DNA of 11,162 bases from Armatimonadota bacterium (GTDB lineage: Bacteria > Armatimonadota > Zipacnadia > Zipacnadales > UBA5352). The stretch lies in assembly GCA_034722055.1 (NCBI GenBank), contig JAYENL010000096.1, forward strand, positions 1 through 11,162, in the 5' to 3' direction. Under the pieces are notes generated by a model. It was not told the DNA's origin, ran no database searches, and worked only from the letters and a program-made list of their open reading frames with translations. The position numbers were made by a program, and so were the translations under genes. Every line of letters begins with the position of its first letter. Within the stretch, counting starts at the first letter, position 1. Shown here one piece after another: positions 1 through 11,162 of this stretch.

Positions 1-52
1 CCTGGCTCGCCTGCGAGCCTCCGGACACTCCTGTCCGTGCGTCGTGTGCCGT
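1..52. repeat. Repeat block A copy 1 (double hairpin; may extend beyond the window edge)
   Basis: cct-GGCTCG-cctg-CGAGCC-tc-CGGACA-ctcc-TGTCCG-tgcgtcgtgtgccgt; direct imperfect repeat of 5713-5762. Confidence 0.8.
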
Positions 53-53
53 T

Positions 54-79
54 GTCGGGCTGGAAGCCCGACCTACGCG
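54..79 (-). repeat. GTAG-family REP palindrome (copy 1)
   Basis: Minus strand CGC-GTAG-GTCGGGCT-TCC-AGCCCGAC; exact reverse complement of 228-253. Confidence 0.85.
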
Positions 80-96
80 AAGGATGGAGACAATGA

Positions 97-171
97 CAAC
101 GACCGGGCCGGGACGGAGACCGGCCCTTCCAAACGGCACGGCAAACGTCGTGAGAGGGTCCGTCCTGAGGA
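97..171. repeat. Repeat block B copy 1 (REP-like hairpin plus tail)
   Basis: caacgacc-GGGCCGG-gacggaga-CCGGCCC-ttccaaac..gcaaacgtcgt..ccgtcctgagga; direct imperfect repeat of 5564-5637. Confidence 0.85.
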
Positions 172-227
172 TGGGGCCAAAGCTGGACGAAGCCGGTCCC
201 CGCGCCGTCGGGACAGCAGGTTCCTCC

Positions 228-253
228 CGCGTAGGTCGGGCTTCCAGCCCGAC
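228..253 (+). repeat. GTAG-family REP palindrome (copy 2)
   Basis: CGC-GTAG-GTCGGGCT-TCC-AGCCCGAC: GTAG tetramer followed by an 8-bp stem. Confidence 0.85.
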
Positions 254-350
254 GCCGTTTCCCGACCGCCCGTTGCTCTGGCAACCGCCCCTCCATCGTG
301 AGCGCAAGGCTGTTGTCGTGATGCAAGATGATACGCGAACTCCGGCGGCA

Positions 351-2582
351 CTACCGCCGCGCAATCAGCGGCAGCGACGCCACCAGAGCCGCGCCCCCCA
401 GCACCGCCAGCAGGCGAGCAGTGGCCGGCAGGCCCATCATCGGCACCAGCAACACGCTCACCGCGGCCGCACCCGCGGCGCCTCCTACCAGGTCCAGCGC
501 ATAGAGCGATGATGCCGCCCGGGCCTCCCTGCCGCCCATGAGGCCGACGCCCAGCGGGAAGGCGGCACCGGTCAGCAGGCTCGCGGCCAGCGCCACAAAG
601 CCCAGCACAACGGTGGCCAGGGCCGGGATCGCGGAGCTTACGGCCATCAGCCAGGGGAAGCTGACGCACAGCGCGACGAAGATGCCGCTGATGCCAGCGA
701 ACAGCGCCGGCCGCCACGTATCCTTCTGCGTGCGCGCCAGCATCGCTCCCAGTGCCAGCCCCAGCATGTTGAGCGTCATCAGCAGGCCGATCTGATGATA
801 CAGGTAGCCCGCGATAGCCTGGAAGGCGAACAGCACCACGAGCTGCACGGCCATCTCCAGCAGTCCGATGATCAGGATGGCGGCCCCCACCGCGATCCGC
901 CGGTAGCTCCCCCGCCGGCTGAGCGTGAGCGCCGCCAGCAGCGCCAGCGCCGTCAGCCCCCAGGCCGCCGTCCGCGCCGCCTCACCCACGCGGCTCAGCC
1001 ACCCCAGCTCCGCGCGCGGCCAGAACTGCCGCGCCCACAGCCGCATCTGCAGGTGATAGGCCACCGGCCGGAAGTCGGTGTTGGTGGGCGCGTCGGCGGC
1101 CTCGCGCACCGCCTCAAGCGCCATCTCACACGCCAGGGGGTTCAACGCGGCCTCCAGCGTGAAGGGCGTCAGGAACTGGGTCTCGACGTCTCGCTTCTCG
1201 AGCTGTTGCGCGATGCTCCCGGCGCCCGCGTTGTCGCCCGCCAGGAAGTAGAGGCGCTCGCCGATCGGCAGCACCGCCCGCTCGGAGAAGGACTCCCCCA
1301 GTGCCCGCCACACGCCGCCGACCGTCAGGCGCCGCTCGCCGGTGAGGGTGGTGCGCGGCGAGCTCAGAGTCGTCATCAGCACGCCGCCCTCCCGGAGCGC
1401 CCGGCGCGCCTCCCTGAAGGCCTCCTGTGTGTAGTAGCGGTTGATGACCGCCGTAGTGGGATCCGGCAGGTCGGCGGCGATCACGTCGTAGTGGCGATCG
1501 GCGGCCTTCAGGAAGGCCCGGCCATCGGTGAAGTGCAGGTGCAGTCGAGGGTCGCTCAGCGCGGCCGCCAGCTTCGCGGGCACGTGGCGCCAGACGAACT
1601 CGATCCCCCGGCGATCCAGCTCCACGTAGTGCACCTCGCGCACGGGGTGCTTGAGGGCCTCACGGACAGCCGGCGGGCCGCCGCCGATCATCAGCACCCG
1701 CCGGGGCTGTGGATGCGCCGCCAGCGCGATGTGGACGGACTCGGCGTCCTGCTGGGGGCCGGTGGCGAAGGCGGGCACGCCATCGTGGGAGAACGTGAGC
1801 TGGTCGTGCTGCCGGCTGACGCTCCAGAGGCCGTAGCGCGTGTTCGTCCACGCCACCAGGTCGCGCTTCCAGCGGACCTGCATCAGCGCCCGGTCGATGC
1901 CGTGCGTCACCGCCGGCCAGGCTGCCGGCACGATGCACGCCGCAGCCAGCGCGCCGGCGGCAACGGCGGCACCGCCCCGCTCCGCCGCGGCTGCGACCCA
2001 GCAGGCGAGCACGCAGTTGAGGGCGCACAGGCCGCTCACGGCGGCCACGACGTTGAGGTGATCTGCCACCAGGAAGTGAAAGAGCACGCCGGCCGCCACC
2101 GCCCCGGTGGCCTCCAGCACGTAGACGGCGCTGGCGCCTCGCTCGCTGATTCCCTCCAGAAGCGCGCAGCCGAGGGCAAACTGGGCCCCCAGCACCAGGC
2201 ACGCCGGCGCCAGGGCCGCCGCCGTCAGTGCCAGCGCGGACAGCGGCGATGCGATCTGGCCGGGGAACTGGCCCTGCTGGCCCGCCAGCCGCGCCAGCAC
2301 CAGCCCTCCGGCCATCAGCGGCGCCAGGGCCAGCTCGCTGCCGGCCAGCAGGCCGGGCGTGGCGCGCCTCGTGGAAAGGCGTCCGCCGACGGCGCTGCCC
2401 GCCGCCACCAGCAGCAGCCACGCCAGCAGTATGATGCCGATGATCAGCTCGTTGCCTACGAAGGAGACCAGCAGCTCGCGGGTGATGACGACCTGATACA
2501 TCAGGGCCGTGAACCCCACCCCCGCAAGGGCAACGGAGAGAGGGCCCAGCAGGTGCTGTGGATCGTCGCTACGACCAGACAC
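351..2582 (-). CDS. Fused MFS-like membrane protein / spermidine synthase-like (class I SAM-binding) domain, ~14 TM
   Basis: 743 aa. About 7 hydrophobic helices, then a soluble Rossmann domain (RRVLMIGGG, VHYVELD, DGRAFL, YDVIAADLPDP, YYTQEAF, LREGGVL), then about 7 more helices. The GTG start overlaps the amrS stop by 14 nt. Confidence 0.85.
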   Translation of the reverse strand: MSGRSDDPQHLLGPLSVALAGVGFTALMYQVVITRELLVSFVGNELIIGIILLAWLLLVAAGSAVGGRLSTRRATPGLLAGSELALAPLMAGGLVLARLAGQQGQFPGQIASPLSALALTAAALAPACLVLGAQFALGCALLEGISERGASAVYVLEATGAVAAGVLFHFLVADHLNVVAAVSGLCALNCVLACWVAAAAERGGAAVAAGALAAACIVPAAWPAVTHGIDRALMQVRWKRDLVAWTNTRYGLWSVSRQHDQLTFSHDGVPAFATGPQQDAESVHIALAAHPQPRRVLMIGGGPPAVREALKHPVREVHYVELDRRGIEFVWRHVPAKLAAALSDPRLHLHFTDGRAFLKAADRHYDVIAADLPDPTTAVINRYYTQEAFREARRALREGGVLMTTLSSPRTTLTGERRLTVGGVWRALGESFSERAVLPIGERLYFLAGDNAGAGSIAQQLEKRDVETQFLTPFTLEAALNPLACEMALEAVREAADAPTNTDFRPVAYHLQMRLWARQFWPRAELGWLSRVGEAARTAAWGLTALALLAALTLSRRGSYRRIAVGAAILIIGLLEMAVQLVVLFAFQAIAGYLYHQIGLLMTLNMLGLALGAMLARTQKDTWRPALFAGISGIFVALCVSFPWLMAVSSAIPALATVVLGFVALAASLLTGAAFPLGVGLMGGREARAASSLYALDLVGGAAGAAAVSVLLVPMMGLPATARLLAVLGGAALVASLPLIARR

Positions 2583-3741
2583 CGGGGATCTTGTTCCCGC
2601 AGAACCGGCAGGCGCCGTTCGGCTTCACGTGCGTCTCCCGGACCTGGAAGCCGTAGCGCCGGACCACCACCTCGCCGCAGGAGGCGCAGTAGGTGTTCTC
2701 ACCGGCGTGGCCGGGGACGTTCCCGAGGTAGACGTAGTCCAGGCCCTCCTCGCGGGCGGCGTTTCGGCACTCTTCGAGTGTGCTCACGGGGGTCGAGGGG
2801 AGCTTCGTGAGCTGGTAGGCGGGGTGGAAGCGCGAGAAGTGCAGCGGCACTCCCCGCCCCACAGCGCGCTTGAGCCACCGGGCCATCTCCCGAATCGTGT
2901 CGAGGTCATCGTTGACCGTGGGCACCACGAGATAGACGATCTCCAGCCACTTGCCCAGCGCCTGCACCCGCTTGATGGTCATCTTCACTGGCTCCAGAGT
3001 CCCGCCAGTGTAGTTATTGTAGAAGTCCGTGGTGAACCCCTTGAGATCGACCTTGATGGCGCCGAGGTGCGGCGCCAGCTTCAGCATCGGCTCCCGGTTG
3101 ATGTACCCGTTGGAGATCATCACCGGCTTGAGCCCCTGCTGCCTCGCCAGCTTCGCGGTGTCCAGCATGTACTCATAGAAGATGGTGGGCTCGTTGTAGG
3201 TGAAGGCCACGGCCTCGCAGTCGTACTCCCGGGCCTTGCTGACGAGCGTCTCGGGCGAGAGAGGGATCGGCCGGTCGAGCTGCTCGGGCCTGATCTGCGA
3301 GATCTCCCAGTTCTGGCAGTCTTTGCAGCGCATGTTGCAGCCCACGGTGCCGACCGAGAACGCGCGGCTGCCCGGCAGGTAGTGGAAGAGCGGCTTCTTC
3401 TCGATGGGGTCGATGTTCACCGCCGCCGCGGTGCCGTAGACCAGCGTGTAGTAGGTGCCTCCGCGGTTCTCGCGGACGCCGCACACGCCCCTCCCGCCGT
3501 CGCCCACCGCACACCCTCGCGGACACAGCCTGCACTGGACGTTACCACCGGGCAGCTTATCGTAGAACATCGCCTCATGCGCATCTGAGGCTCCCGCGAC
3601 GCTCTCGACGCCCCGCAGCCCGCTGCCGACTACGCCCGCGAGTGCGCCGGCGCCGCCCAGCGCCAGCCCCCCGCCCACGAGCAGCTTCAGCATCGATCGC
3701 CGATCCATCGTCTCCTTCTCTTCGCGTGTCTCCTCGCCCAC
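2569..3741 (-). CDS. amrS: AmmeMemoRadiSam system radical SAM enzyme with Tat signal peptide
   Basis: Radical SAM CxxxCxxC (GCNMRCKDCQNWEISQ), N-terminal CRLCPRGC..CGVR, IDPIEKKPLFH, FTYNEP, PLHFSRFHP, YVYLGNV, C-terminal CASC..CRFC. Start is ambiguous: GTG 3741 (GAGG 7 nt upstream), ATG 3708 (AAGGAG 3 nt upstream) or GTG 3756. Confidence 0.93.
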   Translation of the reverse strand: MGEETREEKETMDRRSMLKLLVGGGLALGGAGALAGVVGSGLRGVESVAGASDAHEAMFYDKLPGGNVQCRLCPRGCAVGDGGRGVCGVRENRGGTYYTLVYGTAAAVNIDPIEKKPLFHYLPGSRAFSVGTVGCNMRCKDCQNWEISQIRPEQLDRPIPLSPETLVSKAREYDCEAVAFTYNEPTIFYEYMLDTAKLARQQGLKPVMISNGYINREPMLKLAPHLGAIKVDLKGFTTDFYNNYTGGTLEPVKMTIKRVQALGKWLEIVYLVVPTVNDDLDTIREMARWLKRAVGRGVPLHFSRFHPAYQLTKLPSTPVSTLEECRNAAREEGLDYVYLGNVPGHAGENTYCASCGEVVVRRYGFQVRETHVKPNGACRFCGNKIPGVWS

Positions 3742-3745
3742 ACTC

Positions 3746-5365
3746 TCACCTCTCACCCTCAGCGCCCCGCAGAACCGCCTCGCTGAAGACCTGCGCGGTG
3801 AAGACCTGCAGCGTCGCGCCCTTCTGCCAGGCGTCGGGCGGCAGGCCGGCCTTCTCCGCGCACAGATGCGCCAGCATCTCCTCCCTGTCCCAGCCCTGCT
3901 CCGGCGCCACCTGGGGCAGGAAGACCCCTCGCCGCCGGCCCTGGCTCACGATGACGCCGTGCTCGCCGACCATGATCTCCTCCGGATCATCCACGGTCCG
4001 CAGCGGCGAGAGCACGCTGATCTCGATCTCCAGCTCGTCCACCTCGGCAGCGGTCACGGGCATGAAGCGCGGGTCCTCCGTGGCCGCCGACGCGGCCGAG
4101 GAAATCACCGCCTCGCCCAGGGGCTGGCGCGCCTGCAGCGAGCCGATGCACCCCCGCAGGCGTCCCTGCTTATTGAGCGTCACGAACACCGCCCGCTGCG
4201 GCTGGAAGGCAGGATCGTCCGCAGGCGGCTCTGGAGGGGCCTCGCCGGCGGTGACCGCCTCGACAGTCTCCCGCGCCAGTGCCAGCAGCCGCCGCTGCTG
4301 CTCCGCGTTGAGCTCCCCGGCTTCAGCGGTCTGCCGCGGGGGGCCCTCGTCCCGAGCCGCGGCCTCAGTGTCCTCGCGGCCCTCACGCGCGCAGAACGCC
4401 GCTGCGCCATAGCCCACGCACTGGCCCTTCTCGCCCATGGGGGAGTCGCCGGAGTTGGCGTAGTCGATCACCACTGCACTGTCGGCGCCAAGCCGCCGCG
4501 CGGCCTCCATCACCACCGCGACCGGCCCCAGCCCGCACAGCGTGCAGCTCAGGTTCGCCATCCCCTCGGCCATCAGCTCTGCATCCCTTTCGCGCACCGC
4601 TTCCGCGTCGAAGCTGGCGATGGCCTCCAGCATCGCCCGGTCCACGCGGTTGGCGTCCTCGTAGGCCGGGTAGTGCGACATGTCGGTGCTGGCCACCAGC
4701 AGCACGGAGCGATCCGCCGCGACCTGCACAATGGCGTCCGCCGCTGCGGAGCAGTTCTCCTCCGAGAAGTCGTGCATCACCAGAGGGACGATGGCGAAGT
4801 CGTCCAGCACCATCTGCAGGAAGGGCAACTGCACTTCGAGGCAGTGCTCCGTGCCGTGCGCCTGCGCGCTGCGGTGGAAGCGGTCGGACGCCTCCGCCAG
4901 CGCCGCGCACAGCTCCCGATCCACCGGCACCTCACCCAGCGGCGTACGCCAGACGTCGGAGGCGGGCAGGGCTATGCCCTGGGTGGGCCATCGGTGGCTG
5001 GGTCCGATGATGATGACCGTGTCGTAGTCGGCGCCTCGGAGCTGAGCGTAGGCGGCCGCCGCTATCGACCCGGAGTAGACGTAGCCCGCGTGGGGAGCCA
5101 TGAGCCCGATCACCGGACCAGGCAGCTCCGCCGCCTCGGCCTCCTCGAGCATCTCGCGGACCGTCGCCCGCAGCTCATCGGGATCGCCGGGGTAGAAGGC
5201 GCCTGCGACGGCGGGCTCGCGCACCGTCTCGGCCGCGGGCTCGTCCGCTACGCCGATTTGTGGAGCAGCGTGTGCGTCAGAGGGCTGAGGCGGCCGGCAC
5301 CCCCACAGAGCCAGCGCGCCCAGCAGCCCCATCGCAAGCAGAGCGCCGGTCACGCGTCGCTTCAC
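3746..5365 (-). CDS. amrB: Fused AmmeMemoRadiSam protein B (Memo-like) and protein A (AMMECR1), predicted lipoprotein
   Basis: Memo motifs REPAVAGAFYP, APHAGYVYSG, IGPSH, TPLG, EHCLEVQLPFLQ, ASTDMSHY, LCG, YANSGD, VGY. AMMECR1 motifs from ~4315 down: VFVTL, LRGCIG, EDPRF, EISVLSP, FLPQVA, KAGL. Start reassigned to GTG 5365 (GGAGG at 5375-5379), giving 539 aa beginning MKRRVTGALLAMGLLGALALWG-C. Confidence 0.93.
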   Translation of the reverse strand: MKRRVTGALLAMGLLGALALWGCRPPQPSDAHAAPQIGVADEPAAETVREPAVAGAFYPGDPDELRATVREMLEEAEAAELPGPVIGLMAPHAGYVYSGSIAAAAYAQLRGADYDTVIIIGPSHRWPTQGIALPASDVWRTPLGEVPVDRELCAALAEASDRFHRSAQAHGTEHCLEVQLPFLQMVLDDFAIVPLVMHDFSEENCSAAADAIVQVAADRSVLLVASTDMSHYPAYEDANRVDRAMLEAIASFDAEAVRERDAELMAEGMANLSCTLCGLGPVAVVMEAARRLGADSAVVIDYANSGDSPMGEKGQCVGYGAAAFCAREGREDTEAAARDEGPPRQTAEAGELNAEQQRRLLALARETVEAVTAGEAPPEPPADDPAFQPQRAVFVTLNKQGRLRGCIGSLQARQPLGEAVISSAASAATEDPRFMPVTAAEVDELEIEISVLSPLRTVDDPEEIMVGEHGVIVSQGRRRGVFLPQVAPEQGWDREEMLAHLCAEKAGLPPDAWQKGATLQVFTAQVFSEAVLRGAEGER

Positions 5366-5374
5366 CGTAGTTCG

Positions 5375-5379
5375 CCTCC
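5375..5379 (-). promoter_or_regulatory. Shine-Dalgarno of amrB-amrA
   Basis: GGAGG 9 nt upstream of GTG 5365. Confidence 0.7.
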
Positions 5380-5385
5380 ACCGCA

Positions 5386-5415
5386 ATTGTACTCCCGGCG
5401 CCTTGGGGCCGTCAA
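5386..5415 (-). promoter_or_regulatory. Sigma70-type promoter of the amr operon (TTGACG-N18-TACAAT)
   Basis: -35 TTGACG at 5415-5410 and -10 TACAAT at 5391-5386, each 5/6 consensus in very GC-rich DNA, directly upstream of the RBS and amrB start. Confidence 0.7.
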
Positions 5416-5563
5416 GCAGAGGCGGCGCGTTGGGTGCGAATTCCAAGTGTCGGGAGAACGCGCGGGCGCCCGCGCCCCAGTACTTACCTGGGTTCCGCGC
5501 GCCCTACCCGCACCCGACAATCTGAGGCCGCAGCCGGCGGCTTTCACGTGCCTACACGGAAGG

Positions 5564-5637
5564 CAACGGCGGGCCGGGACGGAGACCGGCCCCGCCAAAC
5601 ATCACCGCAAACGTCGTCGGAGGGGCCGTCCTGAGGA
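5564..5637. repeat. Repeat block B copy 2 (REP-like hairpin plus tail)
   Basis: caacggc-GGGCCGG-gacggaga-CCGGCCC-cgccaaac..gcaaacgtcgt..ccgtcctgagga. Confidence 0.85.
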
Positions 5638-5712
5638 GGGCTGTGAAGGCCGACGGAGTCGGCCAGCAGCGGTCGTTCGGTGCCATGGACGTTCCCGCAG
5701 CGAACTCCACAG

Positions 5713-5762
5713 CCTGGCTCACCCGCGAGCCTCCGGACTCGTGTCCGTGCGCCGTTTGCCGT
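5713..5762. repeat. Repeat block A copy 2 (double hairpin)
   Basis: cct-GGCTC-acccgc-GAGCC-tc-CGGAC-tcgt-GTCCG-tgcgccgtttgccgt. Confidence 0.8.
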
Positions 5763-5780
5763 GCGCTGATCCGGGTACGG

Positions 5781-5898
5781 CAACGGCGGGCCGGACGATG
5801 GTCCGGCCCCTCCATACGACACTGCAGCCACTCGCGCGGCGCCCAAGATGCAGTCGTGCCGTTTGGAGGGGCGCGCCTCCGTTCGCGCCCGGCCGTTG
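5781..5898. repeat. Inverted pair of GGAG-type REP-like units (REPIN-like)
   Basis: caacggc-GGGCCGGAC-gatg-GTCCGGCCC-ctccatacgacactgca (5781-5826) faces tgcagtcgtgccgttt-GGAG-GGGCGCG-cctccgtt-CGCGCCC-ggccgttg (5849-5898), ending 22 nt from the glycosidase-like gene's stop. Confidence 0.8.
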
Positions 5899-5920
5899 TC
5901 GTTCCTGCCGCGAAACTACC

Positions 5921-8900
5921 TCAGCTCCCCGCGCACCAGCGAATGGCGTTCAGCAGCAGCCTGAGCTCGTGATCCGTGGGGGCCGCGTCGGAGTCGTCGG
6001 GCGCCAGGCCGATGGCCAGGCCGGTGGCGAGGTAGCGACCCTGGCCGTGCTCCCCACACACCGCCACGGGCCTGCCGTCCGTGTCGGTCGCCACCACGAT
6101 CCCGGCGTCGCCTGCGTCCAGGAGAACGTGATCGTAGTAGCTGTGGGTCAGCTCCGCGCCGGGCGAGATCTCCGCCGTCACCGGGTGCTCGGCAATCACC
6201 TTCCAGGTCCGCTCCCGGATGTGATCAGCGCCGCCCGTGCAGATGGCCGGCAGCGGGGCCGGCAGCCCCCGGTAGCCCACCGCATCGTGCGTGGCGATCA
6301 GCCCTCCGCCCTCGCCGACGAACTTCCGCAGCAGCCGAGCCTCCCGCTCGCCGATCATTCCTCCGCTGCGGGGCTGCGGCACCACCACGACCTCGCAGGG
6401 CGCCAGCGCCTCCCGGCTGATCTCCCACAGCGGCGCGACATCCAGCCCTTCGCAGCCCTGCAGCGCCTCCATGATGGAGGTCGAGCCGTAGCCGCCCTGC
6501 ATGACCGCCACCGCCAGGCCGGTGCCCTCGAAGACCGGCCCCTCGGTGCGCGACTGCAGTATCCGCTCCTGCTCCTCGGTCAGTGGCGGCAGCTCGGGCA
6601 CGCGATAGAAGGCCGGCGGGTCGCCCGCGGCCTTCAGGTAGACCGATCCCTCGGTGGAGGAGGGCATGACGATCTCGGCCACCACGAAGTAGCCCAGATC
6701 CGGGTCGAGCTCGTCGAGGCTCACCCGGTAGATGTGGTCGCGGTCCATGTGCCCCGCGAAGCCCTCGTGCTCGTCCGCGCTGATCTCGGTCAGCTCGTCC
6801 GGGGCGTCCGCCGGCGCCGAGGCGAGAGCCACCCGCCGCGTGGGCAGCCCCTGCTGGCCGCGCTCGTACCCAAAGATCACCTCATAGTCACCCGGGCCGG
6901 AGAGCGCCTCGGTGACCTCCCACTGCAGCGTCTGCCTGCCACGCTCCATGGTCTTGTCATCCCATCCGGCGATGCGGTGCCGGCGCCAGGGCTCCGACGG
7001 GTCCACGATGCCGTAGGGCTGCAGGCCCTGCGCCACGGCGTCCACGACTCCCTGCACGGCGCGCAGCGTGCCGTCATAGCGGCCACCGGTTACGTCCGGG
7101 GAGATGACGTCGCGCCAGGCTACCAGCGCCCGCCGGCCCTGCAGCCCGGCGTTGGCCACGTCGGTCATGGCCTCCTGCAGCCGCTGGCGCACGTCGCGGT
7201 CGAAGACCTCGCCCGCCGCCACCAGCTCCGCGACCTCGTAGATGCGCCGGGCCAGGATGGCATTCGATTGCGCGAAGCGCGTGTCGTGGACCAGCTCGGG
7301 CACGTCCAGGCGCTCGGCGATGCGCCGGGCCTCCGCCACGTCGTGCAGGTCCTCGTCGAGCTGCTCGACGCTGTCGTAGTAGCGCCAGATGCCCTCGCCC
7401 AGCTCCGGCGCCGTCCCGTTCTGGATCAGGGCCGCCGCCTGCCGCAGCAGCGCCAGATGGTTGCCGCAGCCGTGCGGGGAGCCGTAGAGGTTCCAGGTGA
7501 TCGGCCCCAGCAGCTCCGCCCACTCGCCGACGGCCTCGGCGTCCTCGACGCCCTTCCGCGTCGCCCACGCGATGGCGAACTCCCGCGGCGAGCGCCCGTC
7601 CACGTTCCAGCCCCACTCCGCGGCGGCCAGCACGTTGAACTCGTGGAGCTGGTTGTTCGGCACCGTGTATCCGCAGACCGAGTCGATGCCTTTCTCTGCG
7701 AACTCGGTCATACGATACTTCATGAACTGCGGCCCGCTCCAGGGGCAGACGAGCGCGAACGACGCCGTGAACTGGGGGTAGACGCCCAGCCAGTTGCCCT
7801 CCGCGGCGTAGCGCTGCATCAGCGGGTAGATCATCGGCTCGCGGGAGGAGTTGTAGGTGGACAGGGGGCGGCCGGCGCCGCAGTAGTAGCTGATGTCCAG
7901 CTCCGGCGGCGCCGCGGCCAGCACCTCCTCGTTCACGGGGAATGAGCCCTGGGTGAGCAGCACGCGGGCGTCGATGTCGATCCCCTCGTCCCGCATCTCC
8001 TGCAGGATCTCGCCCACCACCTTTGCCTCCAGGGCGTGCTGGGGCAGGCCCTGCTCCGCCGCCTGCTGGCACTGTTCGCAGGTGCAGTGCCCGTGCCACT
8101 CCGAGAGCCACACCTGAATGTCGGTGACGCCCTCCATGGCCGCCAGCTCGCGCATCCAGCCGCCGATGATCTGCTTCGTCTGCGGCTCGTGGAAGCACAG
8201 CGGCGCCGGTGAGCCGCCTACGTCAGCCCGCTCCTCGCCCTCACCCTCAACCTCCGGGTAGTGCTCGAAGATGCCCGTACGGCCCAGGTAGTCGAGGTGG
8301 TGGATGATGGGCACCAGGTTGAGCGCGCGCAGTCGCGCCGCCCTGAGCCTGTCCTCGTCCAACTCGGCCACCGGCGCGCCGTCGTCGGTGAAGCTGAGGC
8401 CGGCGTGGCGCTCCACCAGGTTGAGCTTGTGCTCGGCCATCCACTCGATGTCCGAGCCGGCGCTGCCGCCCCACTCGCCCCGCTCCTCGATGTCCGGCCA
8501 GTCCACCACCTCCGCCAGCGGGATCGTCACCCCGCCGTCGGCGAAGCGGCCCTCCAGGAGCTGGCAGAGCGTGCGCGCGGCGTAGTAGACCCCGCGCGGG
8601 TCAAGCGCCCCCAGCGCCAGCGTGTCCTCGTCCAGCGGCTGGATGACGTAGGCCTGCTCGGCGTTAGGCACCTCGCGCAGCCGCTGCGCGCTCGGGACTG
8701 TCCGGCCGCCGAGCCGTCCCTGCTCGTCGCAGACGCCCAGCAGGAGGGTGAAGCCGCCCTCGTCCAGGTCCACCCCGACCTGGGCCTGGAACAGCTCTCT
8801 CAGCTCCGCGGCGGCCTGTCCCTCTGTCTCGCCCGCGTCATCGGCCAGCACCAGACGCACCTCGTCCGCGGGCAGCGTGACGGCTCGCGGAATCGCGATC

Positions 8901-9037
8901 TGCTGCGGCAGCGGCAGGAGCTGGCGCAGCCAGCGCGTGCGCTGCTCCCCGGAGACACGTGTGACCGTCCAGCCCTGCGGGGCGGCGTGACACCCCACCG
9001 GGATGATTATACATGCGGCAATCAGCAGCTCTCGCAT
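5921..9037 (-). CDS. Secreted multidomain glycoside hydrolase-like protein (GH20 N-terminal zincin-like domain, putative TIM barrel, beta-sandwich, C-terminal class I GATase/ThuA-like domain)
   Basis: LLPLPQQI..EQAYVI..DPRGVYYAARTLCQL..VVDWPDIEERG..WMAEHKLN is the GH20b/GH84-type N-domain signature. C-terminal LLRKFVGEGGGLIATHDAVG..GQGRYL..LLLNAIRW is GATase-like. ATG 9037 has GGAGG 7 nt upstream and a signal-like N-terminus MRELLIAACIIIPVGCHA. 1038 aa. Confidence 0.75.
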   Translation of the reverse strand: MRELLIAACIIIPVGCHAAPQGWTVTRVSGEQRTRWLRQLLPLPQQIAIPRAVTLPADEVRLVLADDAGETEGQAAAELRELFQAQVGVDLDEGGFTLLLGVCDEQGRLGGRTVPSAQRLREVPNAEQAYVIQPLDEDTLALGALDPRGVYYAARTLCQLLEGRFADGGVTIPLAEVVDWPDIEERGEWGGSAGSDIEWMAEHKLNLVERHAGLSFTDDGAPVAELDEDRLRAARLRALNLVPIIHHLDYLGRTGIFEHYPEVEGEGEERADVGGSPAPLCFHEPQTKQIIGGWMRELAAMEGVTDIQVWLSEWHGHCTCEQCQQAAEQGLPQHALEAKVVGEILQEMRDEGIDIDARVLLTQGSFPVNEEVLAAAPPELDISYYCGAGRPLSTYNSSREPMIYPLMQRYAAEGNWLGVYPQFTASFALVCPWSGPQFMKYRMTEFAEKGIDSVCGYTVPNNQLHEFNVLAAAEWGWNVDGRSPREFAIAWATRKGVEDAEAVGEWAELLGPITWNLYGSPHGCGNHLALLRQAAALIQNGTAPELGEGIWRYYDSVEQLDEDLHDVAEARRIAERLDVPELVHDTRFAQSNAILARRIYEVAELVAAGEVFDRDVRQRLQEAMTDVANAGLQGRRALVAWRDVISPDVTGGRYDGTLRAVQGVVDAVAQGLQPYGIVDPSEPWRRHRIAGWDDKTMERGRQTLQWEVTEALSGPGDYEVIFGYERGQQGLPTRRVALASAPADAPDELTEISADEHEGFAGHMDRDHIYRVSLDELDPDLGYFVVAEIVMPSSTEGSVYLKAAGDPPAFYRVPELPPLTEEQERILQSRTEGPVFEGTGLAVAVMQGGYGSTSIMEALQGCEGLDVAPLWEISREALAPCEVVVVPQPRSGGMIGEREARLLRKFVGEGGGLIATHDAVGYRGLPAPLPAICTGGADHIRERTWKVIAEHPVTAEISPGAELTHSYYDHVLLDAGDAGIVVATDTDGRPVAVCGEHGQGRYLATGLAIGLAPDDSDAAPTDHELRLLLNAIRWCAGS

Positions 9038-9137
9038 CACGAACCCTCCCATGCGCGACACGCGTTGACCTCTCGTCCCTGTTCTGGCTGTTCGCCCCCG
9101 ACGCGCTCCTTCCCTCGGAGGCATACGGAATACGGCG

Positions 9138-11081
9138 TCAGATGAAGTTCTTGTAGGTGCGGACGCCCCACACGGGGCCGATGATCCCCCAGATGGCGCC
9201 CATCACGTAATCGCCCAGCAGGACGCCGAGGAAGACCCTGAAGGCCTTCTGATGCCCGGAGCGCCCGCCGTAGCGAAGCACCACCACCTTGCAGAGCCAG
9301 CCGACCAGGAAGGAGCACCAGAAGTAGTTCATCGCGAAGCTCACTGCCAGGGCGTAGCCGGCCGGATGCAGCGGCAGTGCGGTGTGGAAGTGCACCGACC
9401 GCAGGCCCCAGAAGATGGCCGCCCCGGCGGCGGTGGCCGCGATGGCCGGGTAGTCCGGCCCCGGCTCGGCCTGCAGCCAGTGCGCCAGGCGCCGATAGCT
9501 CTCCCATCCCACCCAGGACTTGAAGGCCATGCAGCGGGCCGCCGCGCCCTCCCGGAAGTAGATGTGCAGGTTCGCCCAGTAGGACAGCAGGATGCCCGCC
9601 ACCGTCGCCAGCGCGATGGTCCTCACCAGCGAGCCGAGTCGGATCTGCTCCACCTGTGCGATCTTCATGCTCTCAAGCTGGAAGGGCATGGGGTGGCAGC
9701 GGTAGCAGCGGTTGAACCAGTAGGTCACCGACAGCGCGGTGAGCTGCTCGGCGCCAAGGGCCGGGGCTCCGGTCACGTTGACGATGATGCGCTGGGGGTT
9801 GATGTAGTAGATCTCATGCGGCGTGCCGAACTGGGCGCGCACGCGGGCCATGGCGATCGAGAGCGCGAAGAACACCGCCACGTACCCGGCCATCAGCGCG
9901 GCGCTCATGCCCGTGAAGCCCAGCAGGATGACCACCGCCGTCAGGCAGACCACAAGCCCAGCGGCGGCCCACCGGTACAGCCGCGCCTCCTCGCCGCCAT
10001 CGGCATGCCCCAACAGCAGTCCCCAGACGCGCCGCAGATGCCCCCGCGTGGTCAGCAGCGCGCCGATCGCCAGCGCAAGCCACGCCCCTGAGGCCTGGTG
10101 CGCCAGGTAGGGGAAGCCGTTCGGCGGCGCCTCCCGCATCCCCAGCAGCTCCGCGCCCACCATCTGCACCTGGCTGAACAGGAAGAAGAACCAGCACGAG
10201 AACGACAGGTCGGAGGGGATGAAGAACGCCAGCGCCACCGCGAAGGGGTAGATCCCGTAGTAGAAGCGGTACAGCCCGCGCCAGGGATAGCCGGTGAAGC
10301 GCGGGCGCTCCAGCTTGATCAGCGGCACGTCCGGAAAGGCCGGCACCAGCGTGTGGATGCCGCTGACCAGCGTGATGACGAAGCCGATGGCGAAGCCGCC
10401 CCAGATCAGCCGGTCGCGGAAGAACTCCGAGCGGCCGGCCCGCGTCTCCGTCATCTCCAGCGGCAGGACCACCATGGGATATGCCAGCTTCTCGTGCTCC
10501 GTCCAGTGCCGCTGCAGGAGGGTGTTGATGCACAGCATGGCCCCGATCAGCGCCGCCAGGAAGCCGCCCCACGCCGCCAGCGGCACCAGGAAGGGCCGCA
10601 GCAGCCAGGGCTGGATGAAGCTGCCTCCGCCCTCGTAGAACGTCTGCAGGGCCGTCATGTCCGAGACCACCAGCCAGGGGCGGAGGTGCTCGTGGAACAG
10701 CTCCTCCCACGCGTTCTCGGGCGTGGCGAACCAGTGGGCGTGGCCGATGGTGCCGAACAGGTTCTGCACGAAGTCGTGGCCGGAGAGGGTCTCGGAGATG
10801 ACCACCACGATGTAGGCGGTCAGCAGCTCCACCTGTGACAGCGCAAGACGGGGGCTGAGGCGCCGCAGGCCCAGGTTCAGCGCCGTCAGGCCTGCCAGAA
10901 TGAACACGGGGGTGATGAACAGGGGCAGGCAGGAGCCGTCCATTATGCCCCAGCGGGCCTCCGCCATGGTGACCCACCAGGTGTTGGCGGCGGCCAGGAT
11001 CAGGCCCAGTGCCACCGCGCGCGGCGTCACCGCCACGCGGGTGCTCTCGCTCGCTTTGCTCTGGGCCTGTGCCACGCTCAT
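9138..11081 (-). CDS. DUF6785/DUF6784-family multi-pass membrane protein (putative transporter)
   Basis: 647 aa with many TM helices. Motifs ELLTAY, WTEHEKLAYPMVVLPLEM, FFIPSDLSFSCWFF, ARVRAQFG, HPMPFQLE, PLHPAGY, VLRYGG, GVLLGD resemble this family, recalled from memory and not searched. Confidence 0.75.
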   Translation of the reverse strand: MSVAQAQSKASESTRVAVTPRAVALGLILAAANTWWVTMAEARWGIMDGSCLPLFITPVFILAGLTALNLGLRRLSPRLALSQVELLTAYIVVVISETLSGHDFVQNLFGTIGHAHWFATPENAWEELFHEHLRPWLVVSDMTALQTFYEGGGSFIQPWLLRPFLVPLAAWGGFLAALIGAMLCINTLLQRHWTEHEKLAYPMVVLPLEMTETRAGRSEFFRDRLIWGGFAIGFVITLVSGIHTLVPAFPDVPLIKLERPRFTGYPWRGLYRFYYGIYPFAVALAFFIPSDLSFSCWFFFLFSQVQMVGAELLGMREAPPNGFPYLAHQASGAWLALAIGALLTTRGHLRRVWGLLLGHADGGEEARLYRWAAAGLVVCLTAVVILLGFTGMSAALMAGYVAVFFALSIAMARVRAQFGTPHEIYYINPQRIIVNVTGAPALGAEQLTALSVTYWFNRCYRCHPMPFQLESMKIAQVEQIRLGSLVRTIALATVAGILLSYWANLHIYFREGAAARCMAFKSWVGWESYRRLAHWLQAEPGPDYPAIAATAAGAAIFWGLRSVHFHTALPLHPAGYALAVSFAMNYFWCSFLVGWLCKVVVLRYGGRSGHQKAFRVFLGVLLGDYVMGAIWGIIGPVWGVRTYKNFI

Positions 11082-11162
11082 GGGATTACAGGGCCAAAGC
11101 CTTGCGGCAGGTTCGTGCTCCCGGCCACCCGCTCCTTCAGGAGCTCGATCTCGCGTCGCCGC
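11078..11162 (-). CDS. 3' end of an upstream gene (partial, unknown product)
   Basis: Open frame RRREIELLKERVAGSTNLPQGFGPVIP* whose TGA (11080-11078) overlaps the next ATG (11081-11079) as ATGA. Confidence 0.6.
   Translation of the reverse strand, partial: RRREIELLKERVAGSTNLPQGFGPVIP

Follow-up and report, generated by a model that had tools for sequence, protein, structure and literature searches.

An AmmeMemoRadiSam operon with export signals and a candidate SAM-delivery membrane protein in an Armatimonadota bacterium

Radical S-adenosylmethionine (SAM) enzymes depend on SAM and on strong reductants, and they are regarded as acting in the cytoplasm. One of them, AmrS, is encoded together with Memo (AmrB) and AMMECR1 (AmrA) in the AmmeMemoRadiSam system, a trio without known reaction whose human homologues, MEMO1 and AMMECR1, are linked to disease. 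It has been proposed that the trio modifies RNA bases, and in the paper making this proposal the term 'signal peptide' occurs 0 times (PMC2034487). Here we describe a related operon from an Armatimonadota bacterium, lying on contig JAYENL010000096.1, the whole of which (positions 1-11,162) was analysed and is referred to as the window; the host genome, G000, is 93% complete. Within 351-5415, and all on the - strand like every operon feature given below, lie genes for a fusion of Memo and AMMECR1 (AmrB-A), for AmrS and for a membrane protein that we call M. The locus shares with the described system the families (TIGR04335 for AmrA, TIGR04336 for AmrB, TIGR04337 for AmrS), the clustering and the conserved residues: scores were 183 bits against a cut-off of 99 for AmrA, 286 against 26 for AmrB and 357 against 220 for AmrS, and the motifs are intact. 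It differs in that B and A are fused and bear a signal peptide, AmrS carries a twin-arginine translocation (Tat) leader and falls on a separate branch, and a fourth, membrane gene is added. We regard the operon as a variant of the known trio with a possibly new SAM-delivery module. No description of an exported AmmeMemoRadiSam subtype or of a periplasmic or exported radical SAM enzyme was found in the literature searched, which excludes most subscription papers, among them Burroughs et al. 2019 JBC (294:10211), which may already note exported versions.

The reading that we favour, and consider rather likely, is that M supplies a periplasmic radical SAM enzyme with SAM and that the operon works on the outer face of the membrane. 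AmrS (2569..3708, ATG start, 379 aa) begins with a Tat leader of about 40 aa (3589..3708), in which the motif is followed by a hydrophobic stretch. The cluster motif CxxxCxxC occupies residues 124-131, and further Cys clusters lie at 59-76 and 341-370. Tat leaders were called by a fixed rule of our own (twin-arginine motif plus hydrophobic region) rather than by SignalP, and this rule identified them in 71 of 81 AmrS enzymes; the wide loci, which are the best 80 of more than 600 AmrS matches to the leader-bearing query, come from records titled Acidobacteria, Aminicenantes, Planctomycetes, Zixibacteria, KSB1, Deltaproteobacteria, Omnitrophota, Latescibacterota, Poribacteria and two archaea. 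The ten enzymes missed by the rule comprise three with a twin-arginine motif by eye, four with Sec-like leaders, one that is cut off and two that are leaderless. In a tree of AmrS cores built without the leaders, 125 leader-bearing and 43 leaderless enzymes separate with a support of 0.95, the leader-bearing side including a distinct second clade. Genes for TatC and Lgt were found in the host genome. It also holds leaderless AmrS genes on contigs C79, C130 and C314, a leaderless Memo on C199 and a leaderless AMMECR1 on C67, as well as a second Tat-leader AmrS on C113 and a second M on C106.

The fused amrB-amrA gene (3746..5365, 539 aa) starts with GTG, 9 nt downstream of a GGAGG. Its product opens with a basic and hydrophobic signal peptide that ends at a lipobox-like Cys23 (5297..5365). 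A first-pass annotation of the window had read twin-arginine and lipobox signals on AmrS and AmrB-A; the former held across phyla, and for the latter the signal peptide is conserved whereas the lipobox is not a general feature. It has a Trp at position -2, which is non-canonical. Of the eight other fused B-A genes in the host's order, 6 show a comparable Cys, against only 10 of 50 frames more widely, and the lipobox appears to be lineage-specific. A hydrophobic signal is present in 45 of 50 Memo frames, a plain signal being the rule outside the host's order; the five frames without a call are three that fall just below the threshold, the one of locus L058 and a cytoplasmic control. Within the host's order, 7/8 other fused B-A proteins have such a signal, compared with 0/21 unfused Memo proteins. 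In the Memo domain (4394..5221), His92, His124, Asp228, His231 and Cys277, which we take to be metal-ligand positions, align with conserved residues of human MEMO1. The AMMECR1 domain (3785..4291) retains the RGChG motif, with Cys406, and the DxRa motif, both as defined in PMC2034487.

These signals could be mere membrane anchors or relics, the whole system facing the cytoplasm as the classical trio does, which would suit the cytoplasmic location of SAM and of low-potential electrons and the want of a clear leader on the fused B-A of L249, from the host's order, and on the B-A of L058. Such a view is very improbable in our opinion, given the spread of twin-arginine motifs over many phyla and the Sec-like leaders of four of the exceptions. 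The DUF362 and DUF6599 proteins encoded nearby are leader-bearing as well, all 53 aligned rows of M obey the positive-inside rule (see below), and a CxxCH insertion, which we take to be a possible c-type heme site, precedes the first Cys cluster in 9 of 245 AmrS frames, of which 8 are distinct. This insertion marks a subclade formed by L100, L108, L171, L179, L185, L253-L255 and L257.

M (351..2582, 743 aa) also starts with GTG, a start supported by the orthologue of genome G001, since this aligns over residues 1-743 at 87%. Its nearest named homologues belong to Armatimonadota, and a repeat protein search seeded with the M alignment brought in one more protein, with no cultured name. Folded with a 53-row alignment, M reached a predicted local distance difference test value (pLDDT) of 92.9 and a predicted template modelling score of 0.92, while folding from the single sequence gave a pLDDT of only 43. 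The model shows seven helices, a soluble domain and seven more helices, which agrees with and extends the earlier notice of a SAM-binding domain after about seven helices. Helices 1-7 (1920..2561) correspond to the N-half of a major facilitator superfamily (MFS) transporter plus a first inserted helix, and helices 8-14 (360..998) to a second inserted helix plus the C-half. Together they form a complete MFS fold spanning residues 7-743 (best Z 29.4, root-mean-square deviation (rmsd) 3.4, 344 aligned), in which two six-helix halves surround a central cavity and both termini are modelled inside. The soluble part, residues 222-528 (999..1919), has a spermidine-synthase fold (1uir; Z 28.0, rmsd 3.0, 280 aligned), and the Spermine_synth profile matches residues 283-409. 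Because the short loops contain 14 Lys or Arg inside and 1 outside, with inside exceeding outside in 53/53 homologues, this domain is placed on the outside.

With the polyamine aminopropyltransferases (PRK03612-type and NF037959), M shares the soluble fold, the adenosyl contacts and an MFS-like part preceding the domain. It differs in being a full 14-helix transporter with the domain inserted between its halves, in scoring far below the family cut-offs (TIGR00417 91 against 249.55, PRK00811 98 against 260 and PRK03612 135 against 472 bits) and in having lost the amine-binding set at the Gln, His/Gln and Asp positions. NF037959 was not listed for the host M; the homologue in L305 scores 56.7 against 40 with it. 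The adenosyl contacts are kept, E321 in 48 of 53 rows and D353 in 51 of 53. The residue after the GGG motif is hydrophobic and was Asp or Glu in 0 of the 45 M rows that could be parsed (8 of 53 could not), whereas it was Asp or Glu in 12/12 seven-helix synthases fetched as contrast. In plant enzymes, a single change at this position abolishes aminopropyl transfer and permits the use of SAM (PMC3725402). Since the adenosyl contacts are retained and the Asp that selects decarboxylated SAM is absent, the outer domain of M probably binds SAM rather than its decarboxylated form. Many proteins that carry the annotation 'spermidine synthase' in these phyla probably have no role as polyamine enzymes.

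The distribution of M was compared with that of exported AmrS in three sets of genomes. A hand tally of the 41 genomes of the host's order gave 28 with both, 10 with neither, 1 with AmrS only (59% complete) and 2 with M and AmrS fragments; M was found beside 12 of the 46 Tat loci and none of the 41 leaderless ones, the flanks spanning 1.5 to 4 kb and including many contig ends. Among 201 Desulfobacterota genomes, sampled via G041 (a Desulfobacterales record) and classed from profile scores, with 40 near-threshold loci and 11 from discordant genomes read, 75 had both, 4 AmrS only, 5 M only and 117 neither. The corresponding numbers for 151 Acidobacteriota genomes, sampled via G042 (a Terracidiphilus record), were 50, 2, 3 and 96, with the unpublished genome G268 counted under neither. 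Leaders were present in 9/9 of the Acidobacteriota loci read above the score gap and in 0/9 below it, and three leaderless operons with adjacent B and/or A in this phylum all came without M. By these counts M follows exported AmrS and not leaderless systems, the correlation that the first-pass annotation had anticipated between signal peptides and the membrane gene, and the leaders themselves are conserved in the orthologues.

The same annotation had presented M as a dedicated partner of the trio. The co-occurrence bears this out for the radical SAM enzyme but not for Memo and AMMECR1. AmrS enzymes of the second clade, complete or as fragments, occur in ten genomes of the host's order, each with a single short unfused Memo; this Memo is leaderless in all seven loci read, and M is nevertheless kept in nine of the ten. 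No Memo was found near M in 21 of the 45 wide loci with M, and AmrB-A was rejected as an obligate partner of M, which occurs without B nearby in these 21. When the M regions of the five M-only Desulfobacterota genomes were inspected, in three the stop of M overlapped or abutted the start of a different radical SAM gene, also with a Tat leader, whose match to TIGR04337 has an E-value of only ~1e-5. We take this enzyme to be PflX-like (L294:4892-5959, L295:4893-5963, L296:4866-5960; also L306-L331). Its clade is present in 26/201 Desulfobacterota genomes, with an RR or KR leader in 26/26, and 24 of these 26 genomes have M, compared with 80/201 overall. If either enzyme is counted, the phylum splits into 78 genomes with both, 4 with the enzyme only, 2 with M only and 117 with neither. 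Judged from these sequences, M belongs to exported radical SAM enzymes and not to Memo/AMMECR1. Since it pairs with two unrelated exported radical SAM families, the common factor would be their need for SAM.

A complex of the AmrS core with the outer domain of M was modelled with a score of 0.78 (runs 0.80, 0.78 and 0.78), while the best control reached 0.00; the mark used for this score is reached by 116/157 solved and 2/215 mismatched pairs, counts that apply only roughly to our own alignments. At least 83% of the contacts recur between runs, and the pLDDT of the partner is at least 80. The modelled contacts include AmrS residues just after the cluster motif, with the conserved Tyr171 and Arg293. 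We know of no solved complex between AmrS and spermidine-synthase-like families. The nearest solved relative of AmrS is the pyruvate formate-lyase (PFL) activating enzyme 3c8f (E 4e-14), one of the glycyl-radical activases, with which docking to a protein partner would be a common trait; these differ in being cytoplasmic, and AmrS scores 47.6 against their cut-off of 231.75 bits. M was also considered as a glycyl-radical target and rejected, there being no invariant glycine loop on its modelled interface; nor was a glycyl-radical target found among the recurring neighbours of the wide loci. The idea of SAM supply, raised in the first-pass annotation, thus gains support from the lost Asp, from this predicted complex and from the switch of M to another exported radical SAM family.

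The same interface can be read in another way. It takes in M residues 256-278, at the acceptor pocket, and the outer domain could be a SAM-dependent methyltransferase (or an aminocarboxypropyl transferase) that works on the same substrate as the docked radical SAM enzyme, one after the other, the MFS part feeding SAM mainly to the site on M. Its model would be the putrescine N-methyltransferase, a SAM-using descendant of spermidine synthase that shares with M the hydrophobic residue replacing Asp after GGG, a methyltransferase signature. Conserved His284, Glu281, Asn381 and Arg382 lie near the acceptor pocket, and the host M retains Asp371, at the catalytic position of the synthases, so that the domain may be catalytic. 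The plant enzyme, however, is soluble and keeps the catalytic Asp, whereas M is fused to a membrane transporter and varies at this position (among 53 rows, Asn occurs there 21 times, Asp 17 times and other residues 15 times). Moreover, the radical SAM enzymes found with M come from two unrelated families and its partner sets differ, which a shared cofactor fits better than a shared substrate, and we consider a methyltransferase unlikely.

Inside the membrane part, the N-half of M has a conserved set of cavity residues (Q30, R35, E36, E45, W55, R98, Y154 and E157) and the C-half another (Q588, Y694 and D697); among them E36, E45, W55, Y154, E157, Y694 and D697 are near-invariant acidic or aromatic residues, which would suit a cationic cargo. 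The cargo could also travel inwards. In that case the exported enzymes would convert an environmental nucleoside, base or aromatic compound, and M would take up the product or only salvage 5'-deoxyadenosine or methylthioadenosine, SAM arriving by other means. Most structural neighbours of M are indeed ordinary MFS transporters, nucleoside carriers included; a Gate gene and a FadL-type porin gene precede M in L295, with similar genes in L296, and three Zixibacteria loci carry an IF-2B-family gene upstream. Such neighbours are rare, however, and the import scheme leaves the supply of SAM unexplained, no other recurring SAM carrier being found near these genes; the loss of the acidic residue makes room for the carboxylate of SAM. 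We therefore hold an importer to be improbable, more so than a methyltransferase.

Under the SAM-delivery reading, AmrS would receive its iron-sulfur (Fe-S) clusters in the cytoplasm and be exported folded via Tat, and AmrB-A would leave by Sec and, in the host lineage, probably be lipid-anchored. SAM would pass from the cytoplasm through the MFS cavity of M to the outer adenosyl-binding domain and be handed to AmrS docked there, methionine and 5'-deoxyadenosine probably returning by the same route. Electrons would come from a membrane ferredoxin of NapH/NosR type, which some genomes encode as a fusion with M or beside it and which is unlinked in the host. The radical would then act, together with the metal site of Memo and the cysteine of AMMECR1, on a substrate outside the cytoplasm, not tRNA or rRNA; an exported system cannot easily perform RNA base modification, which argues against such a substrate for this subtype. 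That the product is a small cofactor or modification for exported clients, such as DUF362 proteins of the LarA clan, is a tentative suggestion. A broader idea is that M, as an MFS channel with a repurposed spermidine-synthase domain, is a general SAM-export-and-hand-off module. It would dock radical SAM enzymes exported by Tat, from two families or more, and so allow many bacteria and some archaea to carry out 5'-deoxyadenosyl-radical chemistry beyond the membrane, a flavin/Fe-S membrane ferredoxin, fused or adjacent, providing the electrons; for this we see roughly even chances. An analogy for such a division of labour is with the AT3/OatA-type membrane acyltransferases, in which a membrane domain likewise brings a cytoplasmic cofactor to external chemistry; there the cofactor is acyl-CoA, the fold is another one and the catalytic domain is external, whereas here MFS, SAM and a separate docked enzyme would be involved.

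Several points weigh against SAM delivery by M. All the evidence consists of sequence and modelling, and choosing the best 80 loci biases the leader frequency upward. In Desulfobacterota the score threshold was chosen once the scores had been viewed and did not fall in a clean gap; of the 40 loci read, 3 had been misclassified by it and were then corrected. Discordant genomes remain, 6/201 in Desulfobacterota and 5/151 in Acidobacteriota, for which gaps in metagenome-assembled genomes may or may not be the cause. Kinship of the genomes inflates the counts, the 10 double absences of the host's order sitting in 3 genera. On AmrS, the predicted interface shows no greater clade-specificity than the remaining positions (p = 0.37), and the predicted interface of M is only moderately conserved. 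To these are added the Asp371 of the host M, already mentioned, and the DUF362 subtype described below, which was not found in the host genome.

If the SAM-delivery reading is true, radical SAM chemistry would extend to the envelope, with a candidate bacterial SAM exporter, and an exported Memo-AMMECR1 would act on a non-RNA substrate, which would constrain the roles of human MEMO1 and AMMECR1. The exported version also narrows the search for the substrate and gives it named partners in M, DUF362 and the NapH-type ferredoxin. Among the 80 wide loci, M was nearby in 45, DUF362 in 41, B-A in 37, DUF6599 in 15, an Fe-S membrane protein of NapH type in 13 and DsbD_2 in 4. In P0030, P0034 and L305, M forms fusions with FMN-binding and NapH-type domains, and in P0017 only the Fe-S domain is attached to it; the host genome has four unlinked Fer4_5 proteins. 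In L305 (3791-7402), the fused M is followed by exported rhodanese proteins.

The DUF362 subtype that is linked to these loci and exported has invariant Lys and His residues and several paralogues in some genomes (for example L045:3924-4922 and L049:4896-5879, alignment A3). By analogy with residues of LarA it may carry a pincer-like cofactor. DUF362 belongs to the LarA clan (PMC11770544). The subtype is present in 20 of the 41 genomes of the host's order, all with exported AmrS. As an obligate partner it was rejected, being absent from the searches of 11 other genomes with AmrS or M, the host included, and from its distribution it looks like an optional client. No solved relative of the subtype was found by sequence, and the Atlas gave only DUF362 clusters.

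As to the layout, the first-pass annotation had seen one promoter and three coupled genes, and this observation is confirmed. A sigma70-like site, with -35 and -10 hexamers and an 18-nt spacer, lies at 5386..5415; it is a consensus match only, with 10 of 12 positions matching, and the sole site in 200-5950, where shuffled sequences lead one to expect 0.2. The gap between the AmrB-A and AmrS genes is 37 nt, and the AmrS stop is overlapped by the M start by 14 nt.

Further arrangements of these genes were observed elsewhere. Loci of the second Tat-AmrS clade (G000:C113:743-5668, L019-L029 and L112-L128) have no exported Memo; a gene for a large TPR protein precedes AmrS in 21/29 of them, and what follows AmrS is a Tat-leader DUF362 in 15 loci and, in 3 others, an exported metallo-beta-lactamase-fold protein. 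AmrS genes stand as tandem pairs in four Desulfobacterota genomes (G189:C42, G093:C24, G052:C11 and G128:C12), and in an Aenigmatarchaeota record (L092:6001-9341) a Tat-leader AmrS adjoins M. The PflX-like enzymes often adjoin exported AmrS or M, and the genes for the FadL-type porin and the nucleoside-recognition Gate protein (L295:8245-10273 and L296:8219-10250) precede those for M and the PflX-like enzyme in the same orientation. A signal-bearing stand-alone AMMECR1 adjoins M and Tat-AmrS in L173:941-1684, L177:7350-8114 and L178:761-1531, with no Memo in the fetched stretch. The leaderless stand-alone AMMECR1 of the host (G000:C67:37043-37621) is 69% identical to the AMMECR1 domain of the operon, which suggests a recent exchange between exported and cytoplasmic systems.

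Upstream of the operon and on the same strand, the window encodes a secreted 1038-aa protein with a GH20 domain 2 and a ThuA-like domain (5921-9037) and a DUF6785/DUF6784 membrane protein (9138-11081), for neither of which a link to the operon was seen. No Rfam match was found in the window. The operon is flanked, at 1-300 and 5480-5920, by palindromic repeats resembling repetitive extragenic palindromic elements. Counted on both strands, the genome contains 19 exact matches to the 23-mer of 232-254 and 84 with one mismatch, and the repeats were rejected as part of the system, being genome-wide elements. Contig C173 ends in a 97% copy, and the contig break may be due to this.

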